A DNA stretch of 64,000 nucleotides from a virus. The stretch is taken from the IMG/VR virus record IMGVR_UViG_3300046616_000242, positions 9,947-73,946 of that record. One strand, 5' to 3'. Of the stretch, positions 1,975 through 39,531 are shown piece by piece (within the stretch, counting starts at the first letter, position 1; each line of letters starts with the position of its first letter). Position numbers and translations under genes: made by a program. Under the pieces are notes generated by a model. That model was not told the origin of the DNA and ran no database searches. It was given only the letters and a program-made list of their open reading frames with translations.

Positions 1975-2012
1975 GTTATGGCTTCTCCCCTACGGCTTCC
2001 GAGTTACGGCTC
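1975..2012. repeat. Three TTACGGCTT-like boxes with a 14-bp period
   Basis: ttatggctt 1976, ctacggctt 1990, ttacggctc 2004. Confidence 0.75.
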
Positions 2013-2869
2013 TACTTGCGGCGGGCCGCGCGCTTCTTGGCCTCGTCGATGACCACCTCGGTGGTCTTGCCCTCCTTGTCCGCGACGGCCTCGGCGACCT
2101 TGTTCACGTCGCGGTGGGTGCCATCGTTGCCCCGCCACGTCTCGTACTGGTCGGCCAGCCAGGAGCGGGCGGCGGCCAGGGTCGCGATGGTCTCGAAGCG
2201 GTCGTGCGCAGGCTCGGTGACGATGCCGCTGCGGGTCTTGCGCTGACGCTCGGGGACGCGCCAGTCGAAGACCTCAAGCGGGGTGCCGTCGGGGTTGGCG
2301 ATGGCCTTGGCGGCTTTCTTCGCGGCTGCCGCTGCCTTCTTGGCCTCACGCTCCAGGCGGGCGGCCTTGCGCTCCGGCGCCTCCAGCTTCGTCTTCTGCT
2401 TGAGGACGTCGACCGGGGCCCACGGGAAGCAGACGGTGCACGACTTCTCGCCCGCCAGGACGACCAGCTCCTCAGCCGACATGCCGGACTGCTCGACCAG
2501 CCACGCGTACCGGGTGGTGGGGAAGCAGGAGGCGCAGTGGGTGTCCTTGTGGACGTGCCCGTTGGTGTTGTCGACCAGGTAGTACCGGGTCCAGCGACGC
2601 TCGTGGTACTGCGCCTCGCAGGGGTACACCTCGGCCTGAAGGATTCCCTGGATGCGCTCTTGGAGCGCTGCGATCTCGCCGACCAGCTTGGCGCGGTTCT
2701 CCGGGGAGTAGGCCGGGAGCATGGACTGGTAGGACCCGGGCTCGGCCTCGTCGATGCGGGACACCGTGGCGGTGAGGCGGTGCTGCTGGCTGGTGAGGTC
2801 GGCGATCTTGCCGTAGGCGTTGGCGAGGACGGTGTCGACCTCGACGGGGGTGGCGGTGGTGAGGTTCAC
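2012..2869 (-). CDS. Hypothetical metal-binding phage protein (HxH..CxxC, CxxCFP), 285 aa
   Basis: ORF, AGGAGG RBS, Cys/His motifs. Confidence 0.8.
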   Translation of the reverse strand: MNLTTATPVEVDTVLANAYGKIADLTSQQHRLTATVSRIDEAEPGSYQSMLPAYSPENRAKLVGEIAALQERIQGILQAEVYPCEAQYHERRWTRYYLVDNTNGHVHKDTHCASCFPTTRYAWLVEQSGMSAEELVVLAGEKSCTVCFPWAPVDVLKQKTKLEAPERKAARLEREAKKAAAAAKKAAKAIANPDGTPLEVFDWRVPERQRKTRSGIVTEPAHDRFETIATLAAARSWLADQYETWRGNDGTHRDVNKVAEAVADKEGKTTEVVIDEAKKRAARRK

Positions 2870-2911
2870 CTGGTGCCTCCTGTTTCGGGGCGGTTGTTGC
2901 TGACAGGTAAG

Positions 2912-2940
2912 ACTCTATGGGGGCGACTACGCCTTGTCAA
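2912..2940 (-). promoter_or_regulatory. Sigma70/HrdB-type promoter TTGACA-17-TAGAGT
   Basis: Consensus boxes with 17-bp spacing upstream of an RBS. Confidence 0.85.
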
Positions 2941-3262
2941 TCGCAATCGGCGAACCGCTTGCGTCGATGTACTGCTCGATGTCGTAGCCCATCTCCAGGG
3001 AGTTGAGGCGCTTCCTGCCGATGGCCTTGATGCGCAGTTCCAGGCGGGTGGACCAGTCGGCCACGTCGGCCGGGGAGAACGGGCCGATCTTGCACTGGCG
3101 CAGCCACAGGATGGGGTCGAAGCGGTCGCCCGTGCCGGTGAGGGCGTCGGCGATGTTGAAGGCGATGTTGCGGCGGGCGTTGATGTCCTGGTCGTCCGAG
3201 TCGGCGATGGCGGCGGACAGGGTCTCGTAGTCGCTGCGGGACATGCTGCGGGGCGCGGGCAT
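2927..3262 (-). CDS. Hypothetical protein, 111 aa
   Basis: ORF, AGGAGG RBS. Confidence 0.75.
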   Translation of the reverse strand: MPAPRSMSRSDYETLSAAIADSDDQDINARRNIAFNIADALTGTGDRFDPILWLRQCKIGPFSPADVADWSTRLELRIKAIGRKRLNSLEMGYDIEQYIDASGSPIAIDKA

Positions 3263-3365
3263 GGCGGGCTCCTCCTGGTACGGGGATGGATGTTCGTGGG
3301 AAGGCTACGGGCCGCCCGGCTCAGGTGTCGAGTCGGACGGCCCGTACGCAGGGGGTGCGTCAGGA

Positions 3366-3596
3366 TCACGCGGCGGGGCGCTCCAGGTAGTACCACAGGC
3401 CGCTGTTCACCTGGACGGTGTAGCGGGCGCCGTCGGTGGACTCGATCAGCCGGGCCTTGGGGTAGGTCGCGAGGGCCTTCCAGGCGCGGTCGGCGTCCAC
3501 GGGTACCATCTCCGTGCCGTTGTAGGCGCGGCAGTTGGTGAAGTCGGCCTTGATGGCCTCGATCTTCTTCGTGGCGGTGCGGGCGATGGTGCGCAT
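3366..3596 (-). CDS. Hypothetical protein, 76 aa
   Basis: ORF, AGGAG RBS. Confidence 0.7.
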   Translation of the reverse strand: MRTIARTATKKIEAIKADFTNCRAYNGTEMVPVDADRAWKALATYPKARLIESTDGARYTVQVNSGLWYYLERPAA

Positions 3597-3616
3597 GCTG
3601 GCGATCTCCTAGGGTC

Positions 3617-4471: not shown

Positions 4472-4510
4472 CGTGGGCTCCTCCTGTTGCGGGGGCGGTT
4501 GATGAGGTAG

Positions 4511-4539
4511 AACTTACGGGTTCACGAAACCCTTGTCAA
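4511..4539 (-). promoter_or_regulatory. Sigma70-type promoter TTGACA-17-TAAGTT
   Basis: Consensus boxes with 17-bp spacing. Confidence 0.85.
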
Positions 4540-5073: not shown

Positions 5074-5427
5074 TCAGACCTCCTTGCCGGTGAGGGCGGC
5101 GAGGACCTTGCGCTTGGCCTCGGCGAGGCCGTGCTTGAAGCCCTCGGAGCGGATCACGGCACCGATGCGCTCGGCTTCGCGGCGGGCGCTCCTCTCGGAC
5201 ATGCCCCCGTCCTCCAGCCGGACGGCGAGGTCGTTGATCTCCAACTGGGCCGTGCGGCCAGCTACGCCGACGATGGGGCGGCCCTTGTCGCGGCCCGCGT
5301 TGTAGATGTCGTCCAGTGCGCGGCGCAGGTCGTCGATGTTCAGGCCCTCTCCCTGGCCCACGAGGTTGAACACCTCGGTGTACTTCTTCTCCAGGGCGAG
5401 GTAGTCGCGGACGCTGCTGTCGGCCAT
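5074..5427 (-). CDS. Hypothetical protein, 117 aa
   Basis: ORF, AGGAGG RBS. Confidence 0.75.
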   Translation of the reverse strand: MADSSVRDYLALEKKYTEVFNLVGQGEGLNIDDLRRALDDIYNAGRDKGRPIVGVAGRTAQLEINDLAVRLEDGGMSERSARREAERIGAVIRSEGFKHGLAEAKRKVLAALTGKEV

Positions 5428-5472
5428 GGGGTGCTCCTCCTGCTGCGGGGGCGGTTGGTGTTGACAGGGAGA

Positions 5473-5500
5473 ACACTACTCCGAAAGCCGTAATCGTCAA
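5473..5500 (-). promoter_or_regulatory. Sigma70-type promoter TTGACG-16-TAGTGT, overlapped by AAGCCGTAAT boxes
   Basis: Near-consensus boxes. Confidence 0.7.
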
Positions 5501-5537
5501 GCCGTAATCTACATGACGTAACGAAGAAAGCCGTGAG
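5485..5537. repeat. Four AAGCCGTAAT-like boxes, period 14/14/15 bp
   Basis: aagccgtaat 5485 and 5499, atgacgtaac 5513, aagccgtgag 5528. Confidence 0.8.
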
Positions 5538-5564
5538 CTGCATCACATGCGGCTCACGGCTTTC
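5526..5564. terminator. Long hairpin, probable terminator
   Basis: gaaagccgtgagctgcat / atgcggctcacggctttc inverted repeat just after the stop at 5586. Confidence 0.7.
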
Positions 5565-6127: not shown

Positions 6128-7666
6128 CTAACCTTCCTGGTTGTAGAAAGTTGGTACATCGACGATTTCCGCGTCGATGAATCCGCTGCCGGACTCGATC
6201 ATCCGGTCCGCTGATACAGGGCGGTCGAGGGCGGTCATCTGCTCCCCGGCGTCCTTTCCGAACAGGCGACTGATCATACCGGCCTGGGCTCCGTTCCCCT
6301 TAGCCTCCAGTTTCACGGAGAAGGAATCCTGCTCCAGTTCGGTCTTCACCTTCACCAGTTTCTGGAGCCGGTCGATCTCACCGGACAGGTTCGGATCCGC
6401 GTAGCCGCCGGTCATATCCTCGACCATCTTCATGAAGAAGACCCGCTGCGTCTGCATCTCGATGAGCGAATTCTGGAGCGAGGCCATCTGCTGCTTGCTC
6501 TTCACTTCGACCGGAATGTCGTACGCACAGTTCGCGTCCTTGTCGAAGGCCGGGCACTTCTGGGCCAGGAAGCACGCCGAGCACACCCGCATGGACTGCG
6601 AGCGGACGGTCACCAGCGGGACGTCGCGCTCCTTGTTCACGCCGTCGTCGGGGTCGGTGTAGACCTCCTTCTCCTGCACCACGCCGATGACCGGCAAGTT
6701 GGTACGCGCCCGCTCCCTGCGAGGGGTGGGAGTTGTTACGCCGTTGACCAGTTCTCCGGTGGTCGTATCAACTGTGCCCCCCTGCGTTTGAGAGAAAGCG
6801 GAGAGTATCCCTGAAGCGGAAGTAGTAACTGGATCGGCCTCGGGCGCACGGTGTTGCTCGATGGAGGCCGCGAGTTGCTGCCACGACCAGATGGTGAAGC
6901 GCAGTACCTCGTTGTTGTCGCCGTCCTCGATCTTGTCCGGGTCGAAGCCTGCTTCCTGGAAAAGAGTGCGGTGCCGCTTTCGGGCCTGGTCCTTGTATTT
7001 CTTCGGGTACCGCTTCAATTCCCGGCCGGTCCACACGATGGTGTCACCGTACTGCGAGGGGGAAATCCAGGAGGTGGACGCGACGGAATCCCAGGTGACC
7101 GCCGCCATTTCCGCAGGCTTCGTCATTGCGACGCCGTGGAGAAGGGTTCCGTATTTCCGGGTGATCTCGTTTAGAACGGGAGCGAGATTCCGTCCGTCCA
7201 AATCCGTCTGAGTAATTCCGACACGCTTGTAGCGTTGCGCGAGGCGGTCGAGTTCATCGACGCCCCATTCCGCGTGCCAGATAGGAAGGAACTTGTCCTC
7301 CGGCAGGTCCTCCCAGAAATCCTCGCGCCGGGCCTCTATCCATTCCCGTCCGAGAACGACCGCGTCGAACTCGGACACCATATTAAGCGAGTCGATGTTC
7401 TGCTGGACGAAGGCTTCGTAGTGCGCGGCGATTTCCTTGAGTTCACCTATCGAGTACTTGTCGTCCTCGGCCTTGTTCACGGTGTAGGCACCGGAGTCGA
7501 GGAAAACCTTCTGGCCCTCCAGGTAGTGGTCCTCGATGAGCCACGGCCGGGAGAACTTGGTGCGCCTCCGCAGCCCCATGTAGGACAGGGAGACGTTCTC
7601 GACGCCTTCCTCGGCCAGCATCTTGCGCCAGCCGGGGATCTCGGATCCGCCGAAGTACAGTTCCAC
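6128..7666 (-). CDS. TGT/DpdA-like (guanine transglycosylase fold) protein with a C-terminal 4-Cys and helical extension
   Basis: FLDSGAY, EFD, PIWH, LHG and WDSVASTSW motifs; CSAC..C..C near the C-terminus. Confidence 0.7.
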   Translation of the reverse strand: MELYFGGSEIPGWRKMLAEEGVENVSLSYMGLRRRTKFSRPWLIEDHYLEGQKVFLDSGAYTVNKAEDDKYSIGELKEIAAHYEAFVQQNIDSLNMVSEFDAVVLGREWIEARREDFWEDLPEDKFLPIWHAEWGVDELDRLAQRYKRVGITQTDLDGRNLAPVLNEITRKYGTLLHGVAMTKPAEMAAVTWDSVASTSWISPSQYGDTIVWTGRELKRYPKKYKDQARKRHRTLFQEAGFDPDKIEDGDNNEVLRFTIWSWQQLAASIEQHRAPEADPVTTSASGILSAFSQTQGGTVDTTTGELVNGVTTPTPRRERARTNLPVIGVVQEKEVYTDPDDGVNKERDVPLVTVRSQSMRVCSACFLAQKCPAFDKDANCAYDIPVEVKSKQQMASLQNSLIEMQTQRVFFMKMVEDMTGGYADPNLSGEIDRLQKLVKVKTELEQDSFSVKLEAKGNGAQAGMISRLFGKDAGEQMTALDRPVSADRMIESGSGFIDAEIVDVPTFYNQEG

Positions 7667-7696
7667 GGGTTGTTTCTCCGAATCTGAATTGGTGGT

Positions 7697-8671
7697 CTAG
7701 AAGAGCGAGCCCTGGCCGGGGGCCGGGGGCTTCTTCGACTTCTTGCGCTCATTGACGGAGTCGGTGAGCATCGAGTGCCACTCACTCGCCGAAGGAGCCT
7801 TGGGAGCGGCCTTCTTACGCGCCGCGCTCGGCTTGGGCGTCAGGTCGTCGAACGACATCTGGCCCTTGCCTGGCCCCGGCTGGACCGGCTTGTCCTCCCG
7901 CTGCCGGACGGCCTTGACCTTCGGCCCGGACTCGCCCGGGGGGAACAGGCCGCGCTGTACGCCCTTGCCGACACCACCGGCAGAAGGCTGGGGGGCCGCC
8001 TGCACCACAGGGGTGGAGTTCGTACGCGCCGGGCGGGGAGCAGCCTTGGCGGCCGGAGCGAAGTTGCCCTGGCTGAACTGCTGCGGGCTCTGGACCGGGG
8101 ACACCTCGGCGGGCGAGGCACCTCCCGGCTTGGGCCGGATGCCGATCTTGCGGGCGCCGCGCGAGCCGTCGGGGTTGTAGGTCGGGTAGGTGCGGATCTG
8201 GTGACCCTGGCCGTGGTCTCGCCACTCCGCCTGGCCGCCGGGCGCCGGGGACGGGCTGGCGGTCGACTTGGCACCCGCGCCGAAGGTGTCGTTGTAGGCG
8301 GCCCAGCCACCGGACTCCGACGGCTTCTTCTGCGCCTGGATGGCGTCCATGCGCTGGTTGAAGGTGTGCAGCAGGTCGGTCCCAGCGGTGGAGTGCTGCG
8401 CGTGCCAGCCGTAGGAGTCCGAGACGTGGTCCTCGCCGACGCGCTTGATCTCCTCGCGGGCGGCCGGAGACGCCTGCGGGGCGGGCGCCTGGCTCTTCTG
8501 GCCCTTGACGCGGATCTTGATGCGGGAGTTGGCGGGCTGCTGGCCCTGCTTGGCGTTCTCCAGGTCGTCCAGGCGCTGCTCGACGGAGCGGTGGGCGCCG
8601 GGGAACTGGAGCGGGCTCAGCCAGCGCTCCTTGAACTTGCTGGTGATCGCGTGTATGCCATCGACGCTCAT
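7697..8671 (-). CDS. Low-complexity Pro/Gly/Gln/Lys-rich protein with QxxLF-like motifs
   Basis: ATGA-coupled start MSVDGIHAI; QRGLF, QMSF and terminal QGSLF. Confidence 0.75.
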   Translation of the reverse strand: MSVDGIHAITSKFKERWLSPLQFPGAHRSVEQRLDDLENAKQGQQPANSRIKIRVKGQKSQAPAPQASPAAREEIKRVGEDHVSDSYGWHAQHSTAGTDLLHTFNQRMDAIQAQKKPSESGGWAAYNDTFGAGAKSTASPSPAPGGQAEWRDHGQGHQIRTYPTYNPDGSRGARKIGIRPKPGGASPAEVSPVQSPQQFSQGNFAPAAKAAPRPARTNSTPVVQAAPQPSAGGVGKGVQRGLFPPGESGPKVKAVRQREDKPVQPGPGKGQMSFDDLTPKPSAARKKAAPKAPSASEWHSMLTDSVNERKKSKKPPAPGQGSLF

Positions 8672-9456: not shown

Positions 9457-10287
9457 TCACCCGTGCTCGTGCTCGTGGAGGCCGGTTCGGTGCTCGGTCT
9501 CGTGCGTCTGGAAGGCGTTCTTGGCGTTCATGTTCGGGCTGTAGCCGTGGTGCTTGACCAGGTGCTCGACGACGTCCTCGGGTGCCGACTTCTTCTTGAT
9601 CTTCGGCAGTTGCTCGGCCTTGAACTGGTCGAGGTTGAGCACCTGGGCGCCGACGTGGGTGTCTCCCCGGCCGCGCGCTTCAGCGAGCCGGTGGTGTGCG
9701 TCCGCGACGTACGGTGTACCGCCCTGGACGACCACCTTGACGTGCGGGTGGTCGGGATCGAGCGGGCCGGTGATGTAGGAGTGGGAGCCGGTCTCGAACG
9801 CGGTCTGGCCGGTGTGCAGCACCGAGCTGGTGCTGATGCTCTGGAACTTGGCGTGCTTGTTCCAGAACGCCTCGTTGCCGTGGCTCATCTGCGGGCCGTG
9901 CTTCTCGTACCAGCGGTCACCGATCTTGGGGTCGACGACGTTGCCGTGGCCGTCCAGGTGCCCGAACTGCTGCGGGTTGTGCGGCGGGCCCATGACCATC
10001 TGCCCCTCGGACTGGGGGTAGCTGGTGCGCTCCTCGTCGTGGATCAGGTCGTGGTCGCGCGGGGAGCCGATGGCGGTGACCTTGGTGTGCATCCCGCCCG
10101 GGTTGGGGGTGGGATGCGGGATATTAAGCGCGCCGGGTTTGTAGTGCGTTTGAAGGTGCAGCGGGGTGTCGCGCGTCAGGTGGTACTGGGCGCGCAGTGC
10201 GTTCTGCTTCTTCGCCTGCGGGGACTTGGTGTCCAGCGGGACCGGCAGTGCGGTCTGCTCGAACTGCGGCCCGAGGGGGTTGGCCAT
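9457..10287 (-). CDS. His-rich protein with a C-terminal ParB/Srx-like domain
   Basis: VKVVVQGGTPYVADAHHRLAEARGRG resembles the ParB DGHHR motif; TGATG coupling. Confidence 0.65.
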   Translation of the reverse strand: MANPLGPQFEQTALPVPLDTKSPQAKKQNALRAQYHLTRDTPLHLQTHYKPGALNIPHPTPNPGGMHTKVTAIGSPRDHDLIHDEERTSYPQSEGQMVMGPPHNPQQFGHLDGHGNVVDPKIGDRWYEKHGPQMSHGNEAFWNKHAKFQSISTSSVLHTGQTAFETGSHSYITGPLDPDHPHVKVVVQGGTPYVADAHHRLAEARGRGDTHVGAQVLNLDQFKAEQLPKIKKKSAPEDVVEHLVKHHGYSPNMNAKNAFQTHETEHRTGLHEHEHG

Positions 10288-12304: not shown

Positions 12305-12355
12305 AACATAGCATCCCCACTACGCCTTTGGAAGACGTAATGGGGATGCCGTAAC
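12305..12355 (-). promoter_or_regulatory. Promoter TTCCAA-17-TATGTT overlapped by AAGCCGTAAT-like boxes and a hairpin
   Basis: ctacgcctt 12320, aagacgtaat 12332, atgccgtaac 12346; gcatcccca / tggggatgc arms. Confidence 0.6.
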
Positions 12356-23394: not shown

Positions 23395-23438
23395 CCAGCT
23401 ACGTATCAACTAGTCAGAGCAAGATCTTTTGATGAATT

Positions 23439-29898: not shown

Positions 29899-29913
29899 GT
29901 GGTGGTGCTCCTA

Positions 29914-30390
29914 TCAGCCACGGATGGGCTTGAACGCGAAGGACTCGGTCTCGACGAACAGGCCGTCCAGTTCCTCGTCGCTGAGGACGCCTTCCTGGTT
30001 GAGGACGTACAACTCGTCCTGGTCCAGGACCTCGGTGGTGACTTCCTTGAAGACCCGGTCGCGGATGCCCTTGGCGACGGCCAGTTCCTCGGCCTTCTCG
30101 GCGTCCAGGCTCACGCTGACGCGGCGCTCGCGCTTGACCTCGGTGAACTTCTGGCCGTTGACCTCGATGGGAGGGTCCAACTTCCAGAACTTGCTGCCCT
30201 TCTCGTCGATGTCGCCGTTGGCGTCCACGTGGACGCTGACCTCGTCGCGCAACTTGTTCTTGCGGGTGACGATCTCGGTCTCCTGGAACTTCAGGGCCAG
30301 GAACTGGCGGGTCTTCTCCCAGGGCGCGGACTGGGTGAGGGAGATAGGGCGCTCGATGCGCTGGGTTGCTCGTCTCTGCACGGTAGCCAT
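29914..30390 (-). CDS. Hypothetical protein, 158 aa
   Basis: ORF, codon bias. Confidence 0.75.
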   Translation of the reverse strand: MATVQRRATQRIERPISLTQSAPWEKTRQFLALKFQETEIVTRKNKLRDEVSVHVDANGDIDEKGSKFWKLDPPIEVNGQKFTEVKRERRVSVSLDAEKAEELAVAKGIRDRVFKEVTTEVLDQDELYVLNQEGVLSDEELDGLFVETESFAFKPIRG

Positions 30391-30439
30391 AGAGCGGGGC
30401 TCTCTTTCTACGGAGTAGTAGGTCGGTTGAGCAGGTCCG

Positions 30440-30498
30440 ACTCTACATTACGTCTTCGAGATTGTCCATATTGGATTACGTCTTCTTGAAGCCGTTAC
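30440..30498 (-). promoter_or_regulatory. Promoter TGGACA-17-TAGAGT with ATTACGTCTT boxes
   Basis: -10 at 30440-30445, -35 at 30463-30468; boxes at 30447 and 30475 (28 bp apart), inverted box at 30489. Confidence 0.75.
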
Positions 30499-30842
30499 TT
30501 GCAGCCGAGACCGGAGTGGCCCTTGGCGTAGCGCTGCGCGTCGGCGTCGGTCTGGTCGGTGCGGAGAGTGGTCTCGGCGACGTCCTGGTAGACGGTGATG
30601 ACGCGGTGGTCGGCCGGGTCGACGACGGCGACGATGTCGCCTCGGACGTGGCGCCACTGGCCGGGGAACCGGCTGGACGGGGAGGTGTGCTGCGGCCGGT
30701 CGGCGGCCTCCAGGACCTGCGCGCTGCTCCAGCCCTTCAGGGCGGCCTGCTTCTGCGCGTGGTAGGTCAGCCGGTACTCCGGGGAGTCGGTGGCTCTGTT
30801 GCTCCCCCAGGTGATGCCGAGCGCTTCCGCGATGGTGGTCAC
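30495..30842 (-). CDS. DUF4258-like protein (RelE/BECR-type fold)
   Basis: LTYHAQKQA..VAVVD..VITVY pattern. Confidence 0.65.
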   Translation of the reverse strand: MTTIAEALGITWGSNRATDSPEYRLTYHAQKQAALKGWSSAQVLEAADRPQHTSPSSRFPGQWRHVRGDIVAVVDPADHRVITVYQDVAETTLRTDQTDADAQRYAKGHSGLGCK

Positions 30843-30897
30843 GATGTCCTCCTGCGAGCTGTTCGATCCTTCGTTCGATTAACGCTTCGTGAGGACG

Positions 30898-30926
30898 ACT
30901 CTACGTTTGGCATATGCGGATGTCAA
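30898..30926 (-). promoter_or_regulatory. Sigma70-type promoter TTGACA-17-TAGAGT
   Basis: Consensus boxes followed by an AGGAGG RBS. Confidence 0.85.
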
Positions 30927-30953
30927 CAGATTCCGCCGAACTGCTTTACAAGG

Positions 30954-31088
30954 TCACCAGCGGTCGGCTGGGGCACCTCGGAGCGCCAGGCGGACGGGGG
31001 TCAGATCCCAGTCCTCTCGCTCCTCGGGTGGGCTTATGACGTCCCCAATCCCCTCACGGAGCAGGACGTCGAGTGGTTCTTCTCGCAT
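30954..31088 (-). CDS. Possible small protein, 44 aa (MREEPLDVLL...)
   Basis: Fills a gap; ATTACGGCTT box 20 bp upstream (31108); no RBS. Confidence 0.4.
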   Translation of the reverse strand: MREEPLDVLLREGIGDVISPPEEREDWDLTPVRLALRGAPADRW

Positions 31089-31153
31089 GCCTTGATGGTG
31101 CCATGCGATTACGGCTTTAGAACCACTCGACGTCCGTCGTGCGATCCTGGAAG

Positions 31154-32794
31154 TTACGCCTCCAGGCACTGCGTCAGGGTCTGGACGTCGTTCTCGATCC
31201 GACCCTTCTCGTCGGCCCCGCGCCCGTCTGTGATGGCGCTGCCCACCCTCCGCTTGTGCGCCAGCATCGCTAGCTTGCGCGGCTCGGTGGTGCCCTGGGT
31301 GACGGCGTTCAGGATGTAGATGTCCTTGAACTGGCTGCTCGCGCGGTTGTGCCGGGCGTTGATCTGGTCCTGCTTCCCGGCCGACCAGGCGAGGTCGTAG
31401 TTGATCAAGTAATTGGCCATGTACAGGTCGGTGCCGAACGCCCCCGCGTGGGAGGACAGGAACACCTGACACTGTCCGTCGGTCTCGAACCGCTGGGCGG
31501 CATAGGCCTTGGCTGCCGAGGACATCCGGCCGGTGTAGGTGACGAACGAGCCCTCCGGCAGCCGGTCACCGAGCAGGTCCAGCATGTCGGGGTTGACGCT
31601 GAACACGATGATCTTGTTGCCGGGCACCGCCATGATGTCCTCGACCGCTGCCGCCACGGCGTCCAGTTTCGGGGCCGTGGTGACGTCATCGAGCAGGCCG
31701 GACTGCCACACCTCGTAGGCGTACTTCGAGCCCGGCCACACCTTCTTCTCGGCGCCGCGCGAGCGTGCCTCCTGGCTCTCCTCGTAACTCTGCCCGGACA
31801 TGACGATCAGGTCCGGGTGGTTCAGCAGCATGTCGAGCGCCTGCATGCGGCTCATGATCTTGCCCTGCTGGCTGTTCTCGTTGGCCGCCTCTCCCCCGTG
31901 GTAGTGCGCGAACAGATCGAAGTCACCCATCGTCGGCCCGGCTGCCCGCAGCTCGGCGAGCAGGTCGGCCGCGATGGCCCGGTACGCCTTCTTCGTCTTC
32001 GCGTCCAGGACGACCGGGATGACGGACTCCTGCACCTCGGGCAGGTACGGCCGGACGTCTTCGTCCAGCCGCGTCTTGCGGACCATGACGTCGGCCAGCT
32101 TGGCGTGCAGCACCGGCAGGTTCCTGTAGTTCTGCACCCCGCCGAAGCGGTTGCGCACGATGTACGTCTTGTCGAACAGGTCGAAACGGCCCAGGACCTG
32201 GTCGTCGACCCACTGCATGATCGAGAACAGTTCCTCGGGCTTCCCGTTCTCGACCGGGGTGCCGGTCATGCCGAAGCGGAACGGCGCCGTGAGCCTCTTG
32301 ATCTTCCGCGTGCGCTGGGCCCGGAAGGTCTTGATGGCCGTGCACTCGTCCAGGACGATGCACTCCGGCTTGATCCTCCTGACGTAGTTCCAGTCGTTGA
32401 CGACGTTCTCGTAGCCGAGGATCACGTAGTCCGGCCGGAGCGTCTTGACCTTGGCGTACAGCCCGGCTCGCTTCTTCGCGTCGCCGTCGATCAGGACGCA
32501 GTACTCCTCCGTCGGGACGGTGATCTCCTGCTTCAGCCCGTCCTCGCGCACCGTGACCACGCGGGTCGGCACGTCGGTGAGGCGGGCGAGGGACTTGGCC
32601 CACTGGTACTTCAGGTTGGCCGGGACCACGATGACGGCGGTCTCGACCTCCCCCTTCTCCAGCAGCTCCTCAATGGCGGCCAGGGCGATGACGGTCTTGC
32701 CCAGGCCCATCTCGTACGCGATCAGGAGAGAGCCGCGCTCCACAGCGCGGTCGACCGCCGACTCCTGATAGCCGTGCAGGTCGACCGTCAGCAC
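31154..32794 (-). CDS. SNF2-family helicase
   Basis: EMGLGKT, VLDEC, MTGTPVEN and QINARHNR motifs. Confidence 0.92.
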   Translation of the reverse strand: MLTVDLHGYQESAVDRAVERGSLLIAYEMGLGKTVIALAAIEELLEKGEVETAVIVVPANLKYQWAKSLARLTDVPTRVVTVREDGLKQEITVPTEEYCVLIDGDAKKRAGLYAKVKTLRPDYVILGYENVVNDWNYVRRIKPECIVLDECTAIKTFRAQRTRKIKRLTAPFRFGMTGTPVENGKPEELFSIMQWVDDQVLGRFDLFDKTYIVRNRFGGVQNYRNLPVLHAKLADVMVRKTRLDEDVRPYLPEVQESVIPVVLDAKTKKAYRAIAADLLAELRAAGPTMGDFDLFAHYHGGEAANENSQQGKIMSRMQALDMLLNHPDLIVMSGQSYEESQEARSRGAEKKVWPGSKYAYEVWQSGLLDDVTTAPKLDAVAAAVEDIMAVPGNKIIVFSVNPDMLDLLGDRLPEGSFVTYTGRMSSAAKAYAAQRFETDGQCQVFLSSHAGAFGTDLYMANYLINYDLAWSAGKQDQINARHNRASSQFKDIYILNAVTQGTTEPRKLAMLAHKRRVGSAITDGRGADEKGRIENDVQTLTQCLEA

Positions 32795-33084
32795 TGTGAG
32801 TACTGCCGAGCGAACTGACTCCGCGACCGGGGGCGCCGGGCGTACGGCGTCCCCATGTCGAAGTGCCCGTCCTGGATGTGGTCCGGGTTGGCACACATCC
32901 GGCGCCTGCACGCGCGGTGCTTCTGTCGGCCGTCCCCGCCGGTCAGGAAGGACAGCAGGGTCTTGCCCTGGTAGTACGGGCGCGTCGCGGTGGACTGGAA
33001 GATGAGGCAGTCGGTGTCCGGGTCCGGCTCGACGCGGGCCCAGAAGTCCTCACCCAGGTGCTCGTAGCCCTCGGGTGCCTTCAT
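32788..33084 (-). CDS. HNH-endonuclease-like protein (degenerate)
   Basis: FWARV..DCLIF..HRAC..MCANPDHI. Confidence 0.6.
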   Translation of the reverse strand: MKAPEGYEHLGEDFWARVEPDPDTDCLIFQSTATRPYYQGKTLLSFLTGGDGRQKHRACRRRMCANPDHIQDGHFDMGTPYARRPRSRSQFARQYSQC

Positions 33085-33134
33085 CGGTGGTCCCCCTTGC
33101 GGGGGCAGGTATTAAGCCGGGTCATGGTGATCTC

Positions 33135-34100
33135 CTAGAAGCGAGCGAGGATGGACGAGTAGGCGCCGCGTACAGCGGCCTTGATCTGGTCAGCGTTCAT
33201 GTCGCCGGGGTCCTTGGCGTGAGGGGCCACGGAGTAGTCGAGGAACTTCAGGGTCAGGCCCCGGCCGGTCCACTCCTCCAGCAGCCGCTTGCACGCCTCC
33301 GCCCCGGCGTCGTCGTTGTCGAGGGCGATGATCACGGTGTCGAAGTGGTCGCGGATCAGGGACATCTGCGAGTCAGAAACTCCGGCGCCGTAGGAGGCCA
33401 GCCCTCCCCGGATCCCGCAGGTCCACAGACGGGCCACGTCCAGCGGCGACTCGACCAGCACGGCCACGTCGTCGTCGTAGGTGTGCAGGCCGAAGAGCGT
33501 CTTGGACTTGGCCATGCCCGGCGGCCGGTTGCGGAAGTAGCGGGCGTTCTTCTCCTGCCAGCCCCACAGCATCCCGGTGTCCGGGTCGCGCACCGGAACG
33601 ATCCACATGTCCCGGGCCGGATCCCACAGCACCCCGCACGCCTCAGCGTCCTCCGGCATGAAGAACCGCTCGGCGCAGGCGCTCAGCGGCGGCACGGTGT
33701 ACAGGGCCAGCGACGCCTCATTTATCTGCTTGGTCGTGTCGACCTTGTCGGGGCGCTGCTCCTTCTTCTTCTCCAGGTACTTCCGTACCCGCTCCGCTCC
33801 TCCCCTGCGCCGGACCCAGTTCTTGGCCTCCGCGTCGGTGGCCTCCTGGATGTCCCGTACGAGGACCCAGAAAGCCCCTCGGTATCCGCAGGAGAAGCAG
33901 TTGAAATAGCCCTCGTCGAAGTTTATAGAGAAGGATGGGTGTGCGTCTTTCTTTCCGGTGCGCTGCTCGTGCATGGGGCACGGCATATGTATTTCGTCTC
34001 CCTGGACCTTGTAGTCAAGGCCGAGCGTGTCCAGGCACGCGGTCACGTTTCCAGGGACGGGGTTTCCGATTGCGTCCCATCCGGCTTTTGCTCGGGGCAC
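33135..34100 (-). CDS. dnaG: DNA primase (CHC2 zinc finger + Toprim)
   Basis: CPMH..CFSC, LVESPLD and ALDNDDAG motifs. Confidence 0.9.
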   Translation of the reverse strand: MPRAKAGWDAIGNPVPGNVTACLDTLGLDYKVQGDEIHMPCPMHEQRTGKKDAHPSFSINFDEGYFNCFSCGYRGAFWVLVRDIQEATDAEAKNWVRRRGGAERVRKYLEKKKEQRPDKVDTTKQINEASLALYTVPPLSACAERFFMPEDAEACGVLWDPARDMWIVPVRDPDTGMLWGWQEKNARYFRNRPPGMAKSKTLFGLHTYDDDVAVLVESPLDVARLWTCGIRGGLASYGAGVSDSQMSLIRDHFDTVIIALDNDDAGAEACKRLLEEWTGRGLTLKFLDYSVAPHAKDPGDMNADQIKAAVRGAYSSILARF

Positions 34101-34345
34101 TGGTATCTCCTCTCCAGGTATGTCAGGTAACTCTTCATTTCCCAGGCGTCGCGGCGCCAGTACCAAGTTCCGTACGTTATGAATCGGACTGGCCCGAGGC
34201 CGCGCAGCCGGTGCATTTCGCTGGCGTAGATCAGATTCCGGTCACGGGGATTGCGGTTGTTCTCCCGGCACCAGAACTGGAACTCCCGGAAGTTCCCGGC
34301 GAGGACCACCAGCCGGGGCTCAGAAGGAGGAGCCGACATAGCCAT
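34043..34345 (-). CDS. Hypothetical protein
   Basis: ORF between dnaB and primase, overlapping both. Confidence 0.55.
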   Translation of the reverse strand: MAMSAPPSEPRLVVLAGNFREFQFWCRENNRNPRDRNLIYASEMHRLRGLGPVRFITYGTWYWRRDAWEMKSYLTYLERRYQCPEQKPDGTQSETPSLET

Positions 34346-35588
34346 CGGTGTTCACCTCGTCCATGGCGAACGGGTCCTCGTTCAGTTCCTCGAACTTGCC
34401 CGTCTCCCAGTCCCACTGGCAGTACGTCTCGATGGGCGGGCAGTTACGGGCCAGGACGACCTTGATCTTGTTGATGTTCGCGTCGTCCGTGGACTCGACA
34501 CCGAGAATCACGTCGGAGTCCTGGGCGAAGGAGGACGAATATCCGATGGAGTCGGAGGTGATGCCCTTCTTCTTGTTCATCTTCCATTCCAGGACCTGCG
34601 TGGAAATGACGATCGGGAGTTGCAGGTTCTTCGCCATGCGCTTGAACCCTCGGGTGAGGTTCGTAAGCGCCTGGCTGGATCCCTGAGCCTCGCCGAGTTC
34701 GTCCTGCATCATGTAGATGCCGTCCACGAATACGATCGTCGGCCGGATGTGGTCGATCTTCGACTGCACACCGGTAAGCGTCGTCGCATTCATGGAGTCC
34801 GAGGACAGGAAGAACGAAGGCATAGCCTCCAGTTCCCGCAGGGCCCTTTCGAGTTTGTCCCACTCGGCCTTCTTGAGTGTTCCGTTTCTCAGCCGGGCGT
34901 GGGAAATCCCCGCGCGGATGGCGTCGAAACGTTCCTCCTGCTCCTCATTGCTCATCTCGAAGCCAATAAAAAGCGGACGCTCCCCGTGCAGGTGGGCGGC
35001 CATGGCAGCGAGCAACAACAGCGTCGACTTACCGGCCTTCGGCGGGCCGACGAAGGTGACCAGTTGCTCTTTCTGGAGGCCCTGGGTGGCCCTGTCGATC
35101 GTCGTGAAGCCGGTTGGTATGCCCCGGAGCCCGTCGGGCAGGTCCTTGAGCGTGAGGTACCGCGCGAGGCGTTCGTGGCCCGTCTCGGTCAGGTCGGTGT
35201 CGCGGGCGTTGGGAACCGCCGAGGCGATGTCCGCGAGGGTCTTGTGTAGCGCTGCCATGGCGGCCAGCGCGTTGCCCTCCTCGTGGGCGTCGACCGAGTC
35301 GGCCAGGCCCTGCTCCAGCAGGTCCAGGGTGTGCTGCTCGCGGAGCCGGTCGGTCAGCACCAGCATGCTGTCCTCGACCTTGACGAACTTGTACGTGGGG
35401 AAGTCGGTCTTGATGGTGGCGAGGCTGGGGATCTCGCCGTACGTGGCCTTGTGCCGCAGGATGGCCTTGAAGACGGCCTTGTTGTCCGGGTCGCCGAAGA
35501 ACTCGGCGGTGATGCCCGCTTCCGCGACGTCGTTCAGGTCCTTGTCCTGGATGACGCGGGACACGAGCAAGCGCTCGAAGTCAGCCAC
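34320..35588 (-). CDS. dnaB: Replicative DNA helicase
   Basis: GIPTGF, GPPKAGKS, FEMS, VFVDG and QDSDV motifs. Confidence 0.93.
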   Translation of the reverse strand: MADFERLLVSRVIQDKDLNDVAEAGITAEFFGDPDNKAVFKAILRHKATYGEIPSLATIKTDFPTYKFVKVEDSMLVLTDRLREQHTLDLLEQGLADSVDAHEEGNALAAMAALHKTLADIASAVPNARDTDLTETGHERLARYLTLKDLPDGLRGIPTGFTTIDRATQGLQKEQLVTFVGPPKAGKSTLLLLAAMAAHLHGERPLFIGFEMSNEEQEERFDAIRAGISHARLRNGTLKKAEWDKLERALRELEAMPSFFLSSDSMNATTLTGVQSKIDHIRPTIVFVDGIYMMQDELGEAQGSSQALTNLTRGFKRMAKNLQLPIVISTQVLEWKMNKKKGITSDSIGYSSSFAQDSDVILGVESTDDANINKIKVVLARNCPPIETYCQWDWETGKFEELNEDPFAMDEVNTDGYVGSSF

Positions 35589-36047
35589 TTACAGTGCTCC
35601 GATCAAGGTGGTGGGAGCAGCGGGCAGAGAGCGTCCCTTGCTGCCGAAGATCAGGTGGTGTTCGTTGTCGAAGATCGCGGCTACGTCCGGCATGTAGGGC
35701 AGGCGTCTGGCCAGCCGCTCCGGGGTCGTGGACCACACCCGGCCGATGGGAAGTCCCTCGGCGTCCAGGCGGGCCTCCAGGGGCTCGACAGCGTCGTCCC
35801 CGAGGTAGGTGACGACGTCGACCGAGTACTTGAAGCGCCAGACGGTGTCCCAGATGACCCGGGCCAGCGCGTCGTTGATCTCGTACGCGTCCACGGTCCG
35901 CTTGGCCATGCGAGCGCGGCGCCCGAACTTGCGGGCAACCAGCTCGTGCACGTATCCATCGGGCTTCTCCGGCAGGACGCCGAGCATGCCCTCGTAGGCG
36001 ATGACCAAGCGGGGGACGACCTCGTTGGAGATGTCGCCGCCCTGCAT
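35589..36047 (-). CDS. Second degenerate HAD-fold-like protein
   Basis: LVIAYEGML, VDVVTY and AAIFD motifs, with a layout like 8955..9449. Confidence 0.5.
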   Translation of the reverse strand: MQGGDISNEVVPRLVIAYEGMLGVLPEKPDGYVHELVARKFGRRARMAKRTVDAYEINDALARVIWDTVWRFKYSVDVVTYLGDDAVEPLEARLDAEGLPIGRVWSTTPERLARRLPYMPDVAAIFDNEHHLIFGSKGRSLPAAPTTLIGAL

Positions 36048-36280
36048 CAGGTGCGCTCCGCTTCCGCGCGGAGCGAGATATTAAGCGTGTCGCCCTCCCA
36101 CTTCTGGAACCGGCGGGTGCGCACGAGGTCGAAGCCGAGGTGCTTAGCGCGGCTGCGGACGGTCCACTCCAGGGAGGCCCAGTGCTCGGGGAGGCGATGG
36201 TCCGGCACTTCCCGTTTGTAGAGAATCACCAAAACCTCGTCCTCGAACGGGAGGGGCGTCTGCTCGTATTCAGGCTGCAC
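36047..36280 (-). CDS. Hypothetical protein, 77 aa
   Basis: ORF, TGATG coupling. Confidence 0.65.
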   Translation of the reverse strand: MQPEYEQTPLPFEDEVLVILYKREVPDHRLPEHWASLEWTVRSRAKHLGFDLVRTRRFQKWEGDTLNISLRAEAERT

Positions 36281-36929
36281 GGCGGTCCTCTCCGATCAAC
36301 TTGACGTGTGTGAAGGCCTGCTGGATGAAGGAGCCCATCGTGGGGTTGTAGACGGCGCCCCACTCCCGGGGCGGGAGGTTCGAGGTGACGATCGTGGGCC
36401 GGGCCTCGCGGTGACGCTGGCGCAGCAGGGTGTCCAGCAGTCCCTCGGCGTAGCCGGTCTTGGTCCGGTGCTCCTTGCCGACGTCGTCCAGGACGAGGAC
36501 GGGGGCCTTCTCGGCCGCCACGATCTTGTCCTGGATGTCCCACCACCGGGCGACGGCTTCGGGCTCGGCCCGGTCCTGAAGGCCCATCTTCTCGATGGAG
36601 TCCTTCACGAAGTCGGCGTAGGCCAGCCAGTGCACCGGGAGGCGGTGGGCGTAGTAGACCTCCAGCAGGGTGGCCGTGGCGAGGGTCGTCTTGCCGGTCC
36701 CGGGCGGGCCGACGAGCAGCAGGCCCTTACCGATCTGGGACCAGTCCTCGGGGTACTCCGTGAGGGGCCGCTTGTCGGTGACGTAGTGGTCGCGCAGTTC
36801 GTCGAGCCAGGTACGGCAGGCGGCGGACTCATCGGTGTCCGCCACGGTATTAAGCCGCAGGTGACGGTAGTGCGCGGGGATGCCGTACTCCTTGAGCCGC
36901 AAGGCGTGGACCCGGGGGTCTGTCGCCAC
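36270..36929 (-). CDS. DnaC/IstB-like AAA+ helicase loader
   Basis: GPPGTGKT, LVLDDVGKE, TIVTSN; GTG start after AAGGAGG. Confidence 0.9.
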   Translation of the reverse strand: MATDPRVHALRLKEYGIPAHYRHLRLNTVADTDESAACRTWLDELRDHYVTDKRPLTEYPEDWSQIGKGLLLVGPPGTGKTTLATATLLEVYYAHRLPVHWLAYADFVKDSIEKMGLQDRAEPEAVARWWDIQDKIVAAEKAPVLVLDDVGKEHRTKTGYAEGLLDTLLRQRHREARPTIVTSNLPPREWGAVYNPTMGSFIQQAFTHVKLIGEDRRAA

Positions 36930-36966
36930 GGTTGCCTCCTTGTGTGGTGGTGGTTCAACGCTCAGG

Positions 36967-37016
36967 AGGCTACCACAGATTACGGCTTTCTGAATACGCC
37001 TTTGGGAAAACGTAAG
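36967..37016 (-). promoter_or_regulatory. Putative promoter (-10 TAGCCT) with three 14-bp-spaced boxes
   Basis: attacggctt 36979, aatacgcctt 36993, inverted aaaacgtaag 37007. Confidence 0.65.
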
Positions 37017-37051
37017 GGGCGGACCGCCGTAGCAGCCCGCCCCTGGTGGCA

Positions 37052-38065
37052 TCAGTCCCAGAAGGACTCGTCGTGCCGGTGCTTCTCCATCGTGTTGTCG
37101 ACCTTGCCCAGCCGCTCCGTCAGCAGCCCACGGGCGCCGAGGAAGTCCTTCCAGGCCGGGTGGTTCTCCGACCGGTTCCAGGAGGACGACCAGTAGGTGA
37201 TGATCATCTGCCGGATGGTCTCCCGTTCCAGGCCCTGGGCCATCCACCGGCCGAAGTTCCCGTAGAGGGCGCTGAGGTTGGTGGCGCCGGGTACCGGGTG
37301 GCCTACCTCCTCGGCCCGCTTCCCGAAGAACTCGGCCAGTTCCTCCGACGGCCTCTTGGAGCGCTTCTCACGAGGTCGCCGGACCGGAGGGGCCAGGTCG
37401 TCGTCCGAAGCCGGGAGACGGCCAGCGGGGCTGCTTCCTGGATCTTCCTCGCCGAGGGTCTGGGCCACGACGTACGCCGGGTCGAGTTCCTTCTCCGCCA
37501 GGGCGGCCTCCTCCGCCTGCTGCTTCCGGGTCTTCTTCCGACCGCCACGCTTGGGAGCCGCAACCGCATTCCAGCCCCGAGCACCCGGCCTCACAGGGAT
37601 CTCCTCGGCCTCGCCGGGATTGGACCGTGCCGACCGGCGCGGTGGAAGAAACGTAGTTTCTTCTATATCTCTAACTTCTAGTTGGTTATTGGGGTTGGGT
37701 GAAAACTTCGACACCTGTGCGGATTCTGCACCCTCAGAGAGGGGTGCGGATTCTGCACCCTTGGAAGGCTCCGGGAGCCATTCCGATACCGGAAGTACCC
37801 GGCGCACCACGGACTTGTACCGCTCGGCCTCGGCAGGCTTCTCCGCGTCCGGGACGTGCTCGACGACGCGGCGTTCCTCCAGGGTCGCCAGCGCGGTGAA
37901 CACCTGGCGCCGCGAGACTCTGGCCTTGGCCGCGATGGTGTCGACGGACTCCCAGCACATGCGGTGGGAGTCGTTGGCGGCGTCCGCCAGCGCGAGCAGA
38001 ACCAGGCGCGTGGCCAGGCGGGTGTCGGACTGCGTGAAGACTTCCGACATGATCATGATGCTCAC
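37052..38065 (-). CDS. Phage replication initiator with an N-terminal winged HTH
   Basis: RLVLLALADAAND..CWESVDTIAAKARVSRRQV; lies upstream of the loader and helicase. Confidence 0.8.
   Translation of the reverse strand: MSIMIMSEVFTQSDTRLATRLVLLALADAANDSHRMCWESVDTIAAKARVSRRQVFTALATLEERRVVEHVPDAEKPAEAERYKSVVRRVLPVSEWLPEPSKGAESAPLSEGAESAQVSKFSPNPNNQLEVRDIEETTFLPPRRSARSNPGEAEEIPVRPGARGWNAVAAPKRGGRKKTRKQQAEEAALAEKELDPAYVVAQTLGEEDPGSSPAGRLPASDDDLAPPVRRPREKRSKRPSEELAEFFGKRAEEVGHPVPGATNLSALYGNFGRWMAQGLERETIRQMIITYWSSSWNRSENHPAWKDFLGARGLLTERLGKVDNTMEKHRHDESFWD
37717..37761. repeat. Two 18-bp near-palindromic direct repeats GTGCGGATTCTGCACCCT (iteron-like)
   Basis: 37717-37734 and 37744-37761, next to an AT-rich tract at about 37648-37710. 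Confidence 0.8.
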
Positions 38066-38159
38066 TCGGCGGCTCCGAATCCGCCGTTGATATTAAGTCG
38101 GCTCGACATGTTAGGTTCTTCCCATCTCGGGGTTTGTGGTGGGCCTCGGGGTGTGGTGG

Positions 38160-38218
38160 GCAAAAGCCCCCGGCAGTGAATTGAGGTCTCGAACCTCTTC
38201 AGCGCCGGGGGCTTTTGC
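38160..38218. terminator. Long hairpin, probably a bidirectional terminator
   Basis: gcaaaagcccccggc / gccgggggcttttgc with an inner gaggt / acctc stem. Confidence 0.8.
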
Positions 38219-38223
38219 GTTAC

Positions 38224-39453
38224 TCACTCCGAGTCGAGTTCGAGGCCCTTCTCCTCGATCTCCGCCCGGGTCAGGTGTACGACGGTCTGTCCGGCCGGGA
38301 TACGGCCACGGCCGCGACGGCTGTAGTTGCCCTCGTCGTCGACCAGGAAGGCGAACGTCTTGCTCTCGTCGCGCGGACGTCCACGGCGACGGCGTCCGGA
38401 GGTCTGCTCCTCCTCCGGCTCCTCGGCCTTCTTCTCGGCCGGGCGCTCCTGCTCCTCGGCCTCCTTGTCGTGGACCGAGTCGGCCACGATATTAAGCGCC
38501 TTGGCCAGCAGTTCGGTCAGCGGCCGGAGGCGTACCTCGGCCTGGTTGATGACCGCGTTGCGCTCGTCCTCCAGGCGGAAGGCGTTGTAGGCACCCTCCA
38601 AAGCGTTGCCGATGAGGATGAGGTCGATCTCCTTGTCGGGGACCGGGGTGGCCTCACGCTGGATCTTCTGCGCGGCGCGGTTGACCTCCTGCTCCAGGTC
38701 CTCCTGCTGCTCCTGGATGTCCTGCTCGACCGGGTGCTCCTCGGGCTCCGGCTCGACCTTGCGACCGCGACGGCCGCGCTTCGGCTCCTCCTGCTTGGGC
38801 TCCTCCGGCGCGTCCTCCTCGGTCAGCGGCTCCTCCTCCGGCTCGGCCTCCTCGGGCTCGGAGCGGCGGCCACGACGGCGACCGCGCTTGGGGGCCTCCG
38901 GCTCGGGCTCCGGCTCGGGTTCCGGCTGGGGCTCCTCCTCGGGCTCCTCGGCCTGCGGCTGCTCGCCGAAGGAGATGTCGTCGAGTCCGGCGGTGAGGTC
39001 CTTGGCCTTGAAGCCCGCCTGGTCGGCGGCGTCCAGGAGGAGTTCGGCCTGCTCGCTGCCCTCGTCGCCCCACAGGAGGATGACGTGGACCTCGTCGCCC
39101 ACACTGTCGGCCTTCTTCAGCAGGTCGACCACACCGGCCGTGACGTTGGCGACGTGGACGGTCTCCTCGGCGTCCTTGAGGATCTGCTCGGTGGCGCGGC
39201 TGCGCTTGTTGTCGGCCACGGCGACGTAGGGGAGGTCGGCCTTCTCGGCCCAGCCGAGGACCGCTTCCAGGCCGTCGGACAGGTGCTCCCGGGTGACCGG
39301 GAAGATGAGGTTGATCTCGCGGTCGCTCGGCTCGAAGAAGCCGTCCTTGTCCTCGTCGCCGAAGCCGAGCCAGTCGTTGAGCAGGTCCTTGACGTTCTCG
39401 GGGTCGATGTCGGCGGAACCAGCGAAGGCCAGGGTGATGGGCTGCTTGCTCAA
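38224..39453 (-). CDS. Highly acidic protein with several RGR / AT-hook-like motifs
   Basis: TTG start placed downstream of the promoter; PKRGRR twice, RRGRPR, RGRGRIPA. Confidence 0.75.
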   Translation of the reverse strand: MSKQPITLAFAGSADIDPENVKDLLNDWLGFGDEDKDGFFEPSDREINLIFPVTREHLSDGLEAVLGWAEKADLPYVAVADNKRSRATEQILKDAEETVHVANVTAGVVDLLKKADSVGDEVHVILLWGDEGSEQAELLLDAADQAGFKAKDLTAGLDDISFGEQPQAEEPEEEPQPEPEPEPEPEAPKRGRRRGRRSEPEEAEPEEEPLTEEDAPEEPKQEEPKRGRRGRKVEPEPEEHPVEQDIQEQQEDLEQEVNRAAQKIQREATPVPDKEIDLILIGNALEGAYNAFRLEDERNAVINQAEVRLRPLTELLAKALNIVADSVHDKEAEEQERPAEKKAEEPEEEQTSGRRRRGRPRDESKTFAFLVDDEGNYSRRGRGRIPAGQTVVHLTRAEIEEKGLELDSE

Positions 39454-39502
39454 GTCTGCTCCAGTGTTGTGGTGGTCGCTGCCGTGGTTGGCAACAAGGA
39501 AG

Positions 39503-39531
39503 ACCTTAGCCATTACGGCTTCTAAAAGCAA
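39503..39531 (-). promoter_or_regulatory. Promoter TTGCTT-17-TAAGGT with an AAGCCGTAAT box in the spacer
   Basis: Box at 39512-39521. Confidence 0.75.

Follow-up and report, generated by a model that had tools for sequence, protein, structure and literature searches.

The phage contig and its relatives

The DNA analyzed here is a stretch of 64,000 nucleotides (nt), below called the window, which comprises bases 9947-73946 of a 73.9-kb viral contig (IMG/VR record IMGVR_UViG_3300046616_000242, here G000; estimated completeness 74%). The analysis concerns a box of 10 base pairs (bp) that recurs, singly and in arrays, ahead of many of its operons. Third-position GC analysis placed every gene of G000 on the minus strand. 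The structural genes occupy window positions 39.6-64 kb. The part below 39.5 kb carries replication, nucleotide-metabolism, recombination, and lysis genes together with many small genes, nearly all of which received no name in Pfam and PHROGs scans. The named genes of this part encode an HTH_36 protein, a DnaC-like loader, DnaB, a primase, an SNF2 helicase, a MerR-like winged-helix protein, PolA, ribonucleotide reductase, RecA, WhiB, Cas4, ThyX, SpoVS, and a GH25 lysin.

A search of a phage database yielded distant DNA-polymerase matches only and no close relative. The nearest cultured phages are the distant Streptomyces phages BRock, GiJojo, and Alone3, which have the gene order of the replication module in common with G000. 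The phage group is common in the rhizosphere habitat: at least 22 rhizosphere metagenome runs from many studies held window positions 29000-38900 almost whole (90-97% of the sampled words). RNA-library contigs of two root metatranscriptome runs showed 90-95% likeness to the 20-40 kb region; they give no starts, ends, or strand, might stem from DNA carry-over, and were uninformative on the boxes.

A pattern scan retrieved the same box arrays from seven high-GC IMG/VR contigs. Six genomes were used for the comparisons, namely G000 and five whole records (G001-G005), with nucleotide identities of 75-92%; G001 is complete, with 107 kb and terminal repeats. Two complete sister genomes that are free of boxes, G409 and G410, were included as well.

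Enrichment and spacing of the boxes

The box is asymmetric and has the 10-bp consensus AAG[C/A/G]CGTAAT. With up to two mismatches, AAGCCGTAAT had 45 matches, compared with 17.7 +/- 4.3 in shuffled sequences, and none of 100 shuffles reached 45. A count of intergenic 7-mers, made without the motif of the preliminary description of this DNA, put AAGCCGT, GCCGTAA, AGCCGTA, and ATTACGG at the top. These words were 9-34 times more frequent than in coding DNA, and their intergenic prominence was level with that of the ribosome-binding word CAGGAGG. A 10-bp weight matrix trained on 22 sites of the window detected 36 sites in G000, 18 forward and 18 reverse, and 28 of the 36 are situated in the intergenic DNA that makes up 8% of the contig. 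An iterated weight matrix drifted toward coding-like GACGTC words and was dropped. The box had been described as recurring mainly in intergenic DNA, and these numbers bear this out.

The distribution along the contig is uneven. All intergenic sites of G000 lie below window position 39521, that is, in the non-structural half, and the structural half (39.6-64 kb) contains only two weak coding matches. At least 12 separate box loci were found, each ahead of an operon, and the last box is mostly 50-75 bp away from the next start codon. G001 has a further strong box ahead of its terminase gene. Read along the direction of transcription, the arrays at 5485-5522, 12332-12355, and 23325-23376 have the form ATTACGGCTT, and the other arrays have the form AAGCCGTAAT. 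Rfam and tRNA scans gave no match.

The spacing is the strongest result for the reality of the boxes. The 12 same-orientation pairs of G000 with a distance of up to 45 bp all have spacings of 14, 28, or 42 bp, and in the six genomes the same is true, exactly, for 56 of 56 pairs. Two of these pairs, 5485/5499 (spacing 14) and 30447/30475 (spacing 28), were independently recovered by a blind repeat search. The 14-bp period that had been claimed for the arrays is thus confirmed. Pairs of opposite orientation also obey a rule: with one weak exception in the six genomes, the reverse box is upstream of the forward box, at a distance of 13-14 or 27-28 bp. The resulting layouts (<<<, <<>, <>>, >>>) seemingly grow outward from a center. 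The strict register implies cooperative protein binding, and the joint rule for direct and divergent neighbors fits protein-protein contacts, but neither chance nor simple duplication.

Positions of the boxes relative to promoters

The promoters with boxes are of the sigma-70 type, with spacers of 16-18 bp, and the boxes lie over the -35 hexamer, the spacer, or the -10 hexamer. The overlaps proposed earlier were found again, at 2912 and 30440 with a promoter scan tool, which confirmed the promoters 2940-2912 and 30468-30440, and at 4511, 5473, 12305, 36967, and 39503 by eye, using a Streptomyces-type TAnnnT -10. The earlier box coordinates were correct to within 1 base. The list of 14-bp arrays also held, with the qualifications that 5528 is an arm of a terminator hairpin and not a box in register, that the box at 23353 is weak, and that 30489 and 37007, which had been counted in tandem arrays, are inverted boxes, as is a partner at 12319.

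Three promoters, at 5501, 12334, and 36994, have a common layout: one box comes directly after the -35, a second overlaps the -35, and a third is 27-28 bp upstream of the box named first. The three promoters differ in the orientations of their boxes. The first of them, which serves the 5074-5427 operon, has three direct boxes (5485, 5499, and 5513; 5485-5522, plus strand, inverted relative to transcription) over its -35 (TTGACG), its spacer, and its -45 region. The adjacent terminator hairpin (5528-5562) has box-like arms (AAGCCGTGAG) that are out of the 14-bp register. The second array (12319-12355) consists of direct boxes at 12346 and 12332 (plus strand) and a divergent partner at 12319-12328 (minus strand). 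It overlaps a TTCCAA-17-TATGTT promoter and is embedded in the hairpin 12350-12310, which has a 19-bp stem topped by the inverted pair 12319-12341. In the third array (36979-37016), the direct boxes 36979-36988 and 36993-37002 (minus strand) and their divergent partner 37007-37016 (plus strand) follow just after the terminator 37044-37015 and cover the -35 and the spacer of TTCAGA-16-TAGCCT. Altogether, three arrays directly follow terminators.

The array at 30447-30498 combines two minus-strand boxes 28 bp apart (30447-30456 and 30475-30484) with an inverted, plus-strand box at 30489-30498. The box at 30447 is immediately adjacent to the -10 of the promoter 30468-30440 (TGGACA-17-TAGAGT), which belongs to the operon with the MerR-like gene, and the same site is present in about 25 IMG/VR loci. 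Single boxes were found at three further promoters, all on the minus strand. The box 2926-2935 is located directly after the -35 of the promoter 2940-2912 (TTGACA-17-TAGAGT). The box 4513-4522 overlaps the -10 (TAAGTT) of a TTGACA-17 promoter that was read by eye; it is invariant in 6 genomes, and the remainder of the spacer varies. A box over the -10 also occurs at a site upstream of the window. The perfect box 39512-39521 is in the spacer of TTGCTT-17-TAAGGT, just after the terminator 39559-39533; this promoter (39503) is the first of the non-structural block.

At three sites the boxes are associated with other elements. Upstream of recA, four boxes in 14-bp register (23325-23376, plus strand; 23353 weak) end 18 nt before the ATG; the first box (23367) is in the loop of a hairpin, and the weak second box is in its 3' arm. 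Three direct boxes with a 14-bp period (2012-2003, 1998-1989, and 1984-1975, minus strand) follow a stop codon and precede the next ribosome-binding site, and this array is kept in 5 genomes despite a differing upstream gene. Its middle box, 1989-1998, is the 5' arm of a hairpin (1950-1998) that has a 13-bp stem, no T-run, and a position directly before the ribosome-binding site. Paired bases of the stem changed together (GAGA/TCTT in G000 versus GACA/TGTT in G002; G:C to C:G), and this compensation supports the hairpin, which may be a translational or RNA-stability element. Lastly, the SNF2 helicase gene is followed downstream by a long hairpin with a single perfect box (31108-31117, minus strand) in its loop.

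The boxes are kept in alignments of orthologous sites; variation is seen at box position 4, in the 4-bp gaps between boxes, and in the spacer around them. A box-free promoter (TTGACA-17-TAGAGT, 30898-30926, minus strand) was aligned as a control: its hexamers are invariant, and its 17-bp spacer is free to differ among the relatives.

Several other conserved or repeated elements were observed in the same DNA. At least six operons have a common 5' leader (CAACCGCCCC(C)G.A.CAGGAGG) between promoter and start codon, which is kept across relatives; it is found at window positions 2870-2912, 4472-4510, and 5428-5472 and at sites upstream of the window, and suggests a translation or RNA-stability signal or the duplication of a cassette. 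A 28-nt element upstream of recA (23400-23430; AAAAGATCTTGCTCTGACTAGTTGATAC) is invariant in five aligned genomes, has 2 differences in G409, and is unlike a standard promoter or a LexA box. Coding DNA at 14184-14225 contains two copies of the AT-rich word GGTATTAAGC at a distance of 27 bp.

Restriction of the boxes to one clade

The boxes are present in one clade only, and the set behaves like a regulatory layer that is gained or lost as a whole. Neither G409 nor G410 contains exact boxes or 14-bp arrays. G409 is collinear with the window from 20 to 40 kb at a nucleotide identity of 75-80% (about 78%), and it has thus retained the genes for HTH_36, WhiB, and the MerR-like protein together with the neighboring genes. 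Downstream of the lysin gene (the 12350 site), G409 has retained the long hairpin by paired substitutions, and the box words are lost. Upstream of its recA gene, the 28-nt element and the hairpin are kept, the boxes are degenerate, and exactly one 14-bp unit is missing. A possible variant box in G409, CGSGTAAC, was not enriched. The comparison with G409 indicates that the boxes are a separable layer over an older promoter and terminator architecture.

The window regions 427-1792, 3366-3596, and 9457-10287 are blocks of small genes and represent mosaic insertions or deletions at box or promoter junctions. The genes of these regions are missing from G409 at the DNA level, and no DNA-binding signature was found in them. 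In two box-free distant relatives, three direct repeats of 20-22 bp with a period of 22-24 bp were noticed (L118:4159-4224 and L122:3213-3278); they are iteron-like and may be origins.

The boxes as putative operators

On balance, and with modest confidence, we take the boxes to be operators for one sequence-specific DNA-binding protein that would repress many promoters by occlusion or as a roadblock. One subunit would read one asymmetric box, and neighboring subunits would touch at a fixed register, 14 bp head-to-tail and 13-14 bp in divergent pairs. With 14 bp equal to 1.33 helical turns, four turns accommodate three subunits, and a bound array would thus coil around the promoter. The positions of the boxes on promoter elements make repression the most likely effect: a protein bound to the -35, the spacer, or the -10 would occlude the promoter, and at recA, where the boxes are downstream of the likely promoter and ahead of the start codon, it would form a roadblock. 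The outcome would be a coordinated control of about a dozen non-structural operons, which could serve prophage-type silencing or a temporal shut-off. One regulator for early, replication, and recombination promoters had been proposed before; the recurring, maintained box and its strict register speak for that part of the proposal, and the MerR-like protein that was named as this regulator did not stand up, as described below.

A silencing role is plausible because relatives encode an integrase and a WhiJ-like/DUF397 pair, and because G410 is classed as a provirus. In G001 these are a tyrosine integrase, a WhiJ-like HTH_31/DUF5753 gene on the reverse strand, and the DUF397 (BldB-like) partner of the latter. 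The region with the pair and the integrase (L044:16730-17778, plus strand, and L044:7002-8078, minus strand) is missing from the G000 contig. Judged from these genes, the pair and the integrase hint at lysogeny or at interference with host development, and a temperate or carrier lifestyle of the phage is plausible.

Several points weigh against operators of a single repressor. Several box pairs double as parts of conserved hairpins, either in the arms or in the loop (12350-12310, 1950-1998, 23390, and 31120); the 12350 hairpin survives in the box-free G409, and the conservation is therefore partly structural. The direction of regulation is read from the box positions alone, and conservation among genomes that are 75-92% identical is only moderately discriminating. 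In addition, the named DNA-binding candidates do not follow the boxes: the MerR-like, HTH_36, and WhiJ-like proteins are all encoded in box-free relatives, and the WhiB gene is in the stretch collinear with G409.

A more specific scheme, which we put forward as a tentative possibility, is that a phage protein polymerizes at the 14-bp register outward from a divergent central pair and thereby forms a wrapped filament. It would be a clade-specific master switch, and the operator layer of at least 30 sites would be gained or lost together with the protein as a unit between sisters that are about 78% identical.

The boxes might instead recruit an activator or anti-silencer for middle or replication promoters. 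Weak -35 hexamers at several box promoters (TTCAGA, TTGCTT, TTCCAA, TGGACA, and TAGACA) would be in agreement with activation, as would the upstream boxes at about -45 to -55 (5513 and 30475), which are class I activator positions. However, many boxes occupy the spacer or the -10 hexamer at promoters whose -35 is a perfect TTGACA (2940 and 4536), and binding at such positions normally occludes RNA polymerase. The orientation of the boxes relative to the promoter is variable, and the recA boxes are downstream of the likely promoter. An activating role thus appears unlikely.

Candidate binding proteins

The protein that would read the putative operators is most likely encoded by the phage. The preliminary description had favored the MerR-like protein encoded at 29428-29898 (minus strand, 156 amino acids). 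As the regulator, this protein would oligomerize on the boxes in a BldC- or Xis-like manner and autoregulate its synthesis from the 30440 promoter. The product is a genuine MerR-type winged helix-turn-helix protein without the long dimerization coiled coil. In the structural model (predicted local distance difference test score, pLDDT, 80), residues 67-126 form the winged helix and the C-terminal helix has only 15 residues; fold matches to MerR proteins are weak and confined to the winged-helix part. Small MerR/Xis-like phage proteins are able to bind direct repeats and to repress, for example Gp36 of D29 (PMC12266134), and the operon promoter of the MerR-like gene bears boxes. As about a dozen operons bear boxes, however, their presence at the gene's own promoter is not specific evidence.

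The phylogenetic distribution argues against this candidate. In a family of 89 homologues, the recognition helix VTIRKWEREG and the wing RGRRRLYTR hardly vary, even in members with an identity of only 45%, and yet the boxes do not follow the gene. When 80 IMG/VR loci encoding relatives of the MerR-like protein were examined with 10 kb of flank on each side, the exact core AAGNCGTAA was confined, apart from strays in L131 and L152, to loci with an orthologue of at least 76% identity. About 45 loci, found via the helix peptide TIRKWE, encode orthologues of 40-69% identity. Except for one stray each in L131 and L152, they contain no exact core; mismatch-tolerant counts in these loci were near chance, with no match at 0-1 mismatch. 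The two complete box-free genomes belong to the same picture, and so does the cultured, syntenic phage GiJojo, which encodes a MerR-like orthologue at the same position (46% identity) and has neither an enrichment of boxes nor 14-bp arrays. The presence of the gene without boxes runs counter to the expectation for a cognate pair of protein and site.

The two analogies that had been drawn for this protein also failed. MerR-type activation requires a spacer of 19-20 bp, and the operator is a palindrome within the over-long spacer. The spacers of the box promoters have 16-18 bp, and the boxes are asymmetric and mostly direct repeats. The head-to-tail filament of BldC has a register of about 9 bp, compared with 14 bp here, and the common divergent pairs do not suit a pure head-to-tail arrangement. 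Taken together, it is improbable that the MerR-like protein binds the boxes.

Other phage proteins were rejected as well. WhiB and the HTH_36 protein, which had been regarded as an initiator, are both encoded in box-free G409. The HTH_36 protein is equally similar in G409 and G001, and its HTH-containing N-terminus is unmatched in box-bearing G003. The WhiJ-like gene is also present in G409, the zinc-ribbon protein encoded at 11786-12271 is 86% identical there, and a 559-amino-acid protein encoded upstream of the window is 46% identical in box-free G410. The promoter ahead of the gene for this last protein, which belongs to an unnamed family (L280:6163-7842, G000 bases 6163-7842), bears a perfect divergent pair of boxes. 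The gene is conserved in G001 and G002, which both have boxes, and absent from G409 and GiJojo. The idea that the boxes are iterons of a replication origin was dropped, too: the repeats are spread over at least 12 loci and not gathered at one initiator locus, and the unmatched N-terminus of the HTH_36 protein in G003 applies here as well.

A regulator of the Streptomyces host, to which the promoters of this phage clade would have adapted, is similarly hard to support. It would be in line with the result that no tested phage gene co-distributes with the boxes, and homologues of the MerR-like protein occur in Streptomyces assemblies, on contigs of 100-350 kb. In contrast, none of 401 Streptomyces genomes, about one per species, contained a 14-bp-spaced pair in a search for such pairs, and sister phages of the same habitat lack the boxes. 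The result for the 401 genomes gives no sign of a host regulon of such a design and no prophage copy in the sample. A scan of genome contigs for the tandem pair was swamped by (AAGCCGT)n microsatellites and was uninformative. These intergenic heptamer repeats of unrelated bacteria, found in many Halomonas loci and three Streptomyces loci (L159, L188, and L213), consist of the core word of the box with a period of 7 bp, and the likeness is probably a coincidence.

A further, improbable reading does without a dedicated binding protein: the boxes would be left over from duplicated promoter/terminator cassettes and hairpin arms and would act through RNA or DNA structure. Box-like words in arms or loops of conserved hairpins and the common promoter leader, which suggests cassette duplication, might indicate this. 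However, hairpins do not explain direct repeats at exactly 14, 28, or 42 bp with unrelated spacers or both box orientations at the same promoter positions. Neither do they account for G409, where the boxes were lost and the hairpins kept, and Rfam gave no known RNA family.

Comparison with known regulatory systems

Both dispersed operators of actinophages and small phage repressors acting on direct repeats have precedents (PMC10276819, PMC6550527, PMC12266134). The closest parallel is the repressor-stoperator system of mycobacteriophage L5 and cluster A and of the Streptomyces phages R4 and phiJoe (PMC6550527, PMC10276819). There, too, a short asymmetric site is dispersed over many intergenic positions, one regulator would silence many units, and the specificity differs between close relatives. 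Stoperators are single one-way roadblocks, whereas the phage studied here has tandem and divergent arrays of 2-4 boxes in a 14-bp register and in both orientations, mostly on promoter hexamers. Many dispersed, asymmetric, intergenic sites were found, but not single sites in one orientation. With regard to the temperate lifestyle and the immunity repressor of stoperator systems, an integrase and a reverse-strand WhiJ-like gene were found in relatives and G410 is classed as a provirus; the WhiJ-like gene is shared with box-free G409, and the G000 contig does not include that region.

Gp36 of mycobacteriophage D29 (PMC12266134) is likewise a small actinophage repressor that binds direct repeats cooperatively and represses downstream genes. 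It recognizes a 5-bp GCGGC core at distances of 15-19 nt at two loci, in contrast to the 10-bp box at exactly 14 bp and at least 12 loci described here. Moreover, Gp36 is MerR/Xis-like, and in this phage group the distribution of the MerR-like gene does not match that of the boxes. BldC of Streptomyces forms cooperative multimers on direct repeats of variable number over promoters (PMC5859096). Its repeat is AT-rich, about 9 bp long (AATTxxxx(C)), and exclusively head-to-tail, unlike the 14-bp period, the mixed composition of the box, and the divergent pairs (PMC5859096). For a member of the BldC family, boxes would be expected wherever the cognate protein with its conserved helix occurs, and this was not observed.

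In register and dual orientation, the arrays resemble those of a further class of proteins. The Omega repressor of plasmid pSM19035 and other ribbon-helix-helix proteins use the same short box in direct and inverted orientation, in contiguous arrays and at several promoters. The heptad register of Omega is not a whole number of helical turns, and the protein winds around the DNA, with a 7-bp period and one dimer per heptad. The period differs from that observed here (7 versus 14 bp), and no ribbon-helix-helix gene was identified in the phage. The most economical reading is a dispersed network of operators for one protein, which would be a phased variant of the stoperator-type control of actinophages and differs from it by phased arrays, dual orientation, and register.

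The boxes provide a precise, testable cis-code for gene control in widespread rhizosphere phages of the Streptomyces type with genomes of about 100 kb. A strict 14-bp register with direct and divergent neighbors is unusual for bacterial regulators and predicts a binding geometry that is worth solving. In the engineering of Streptomyces, box promoters could be of use as switchable parts. Sister phages with and without boxes, in turn, represent a natural experiment on the binding protein and on the turnover of an operator network.

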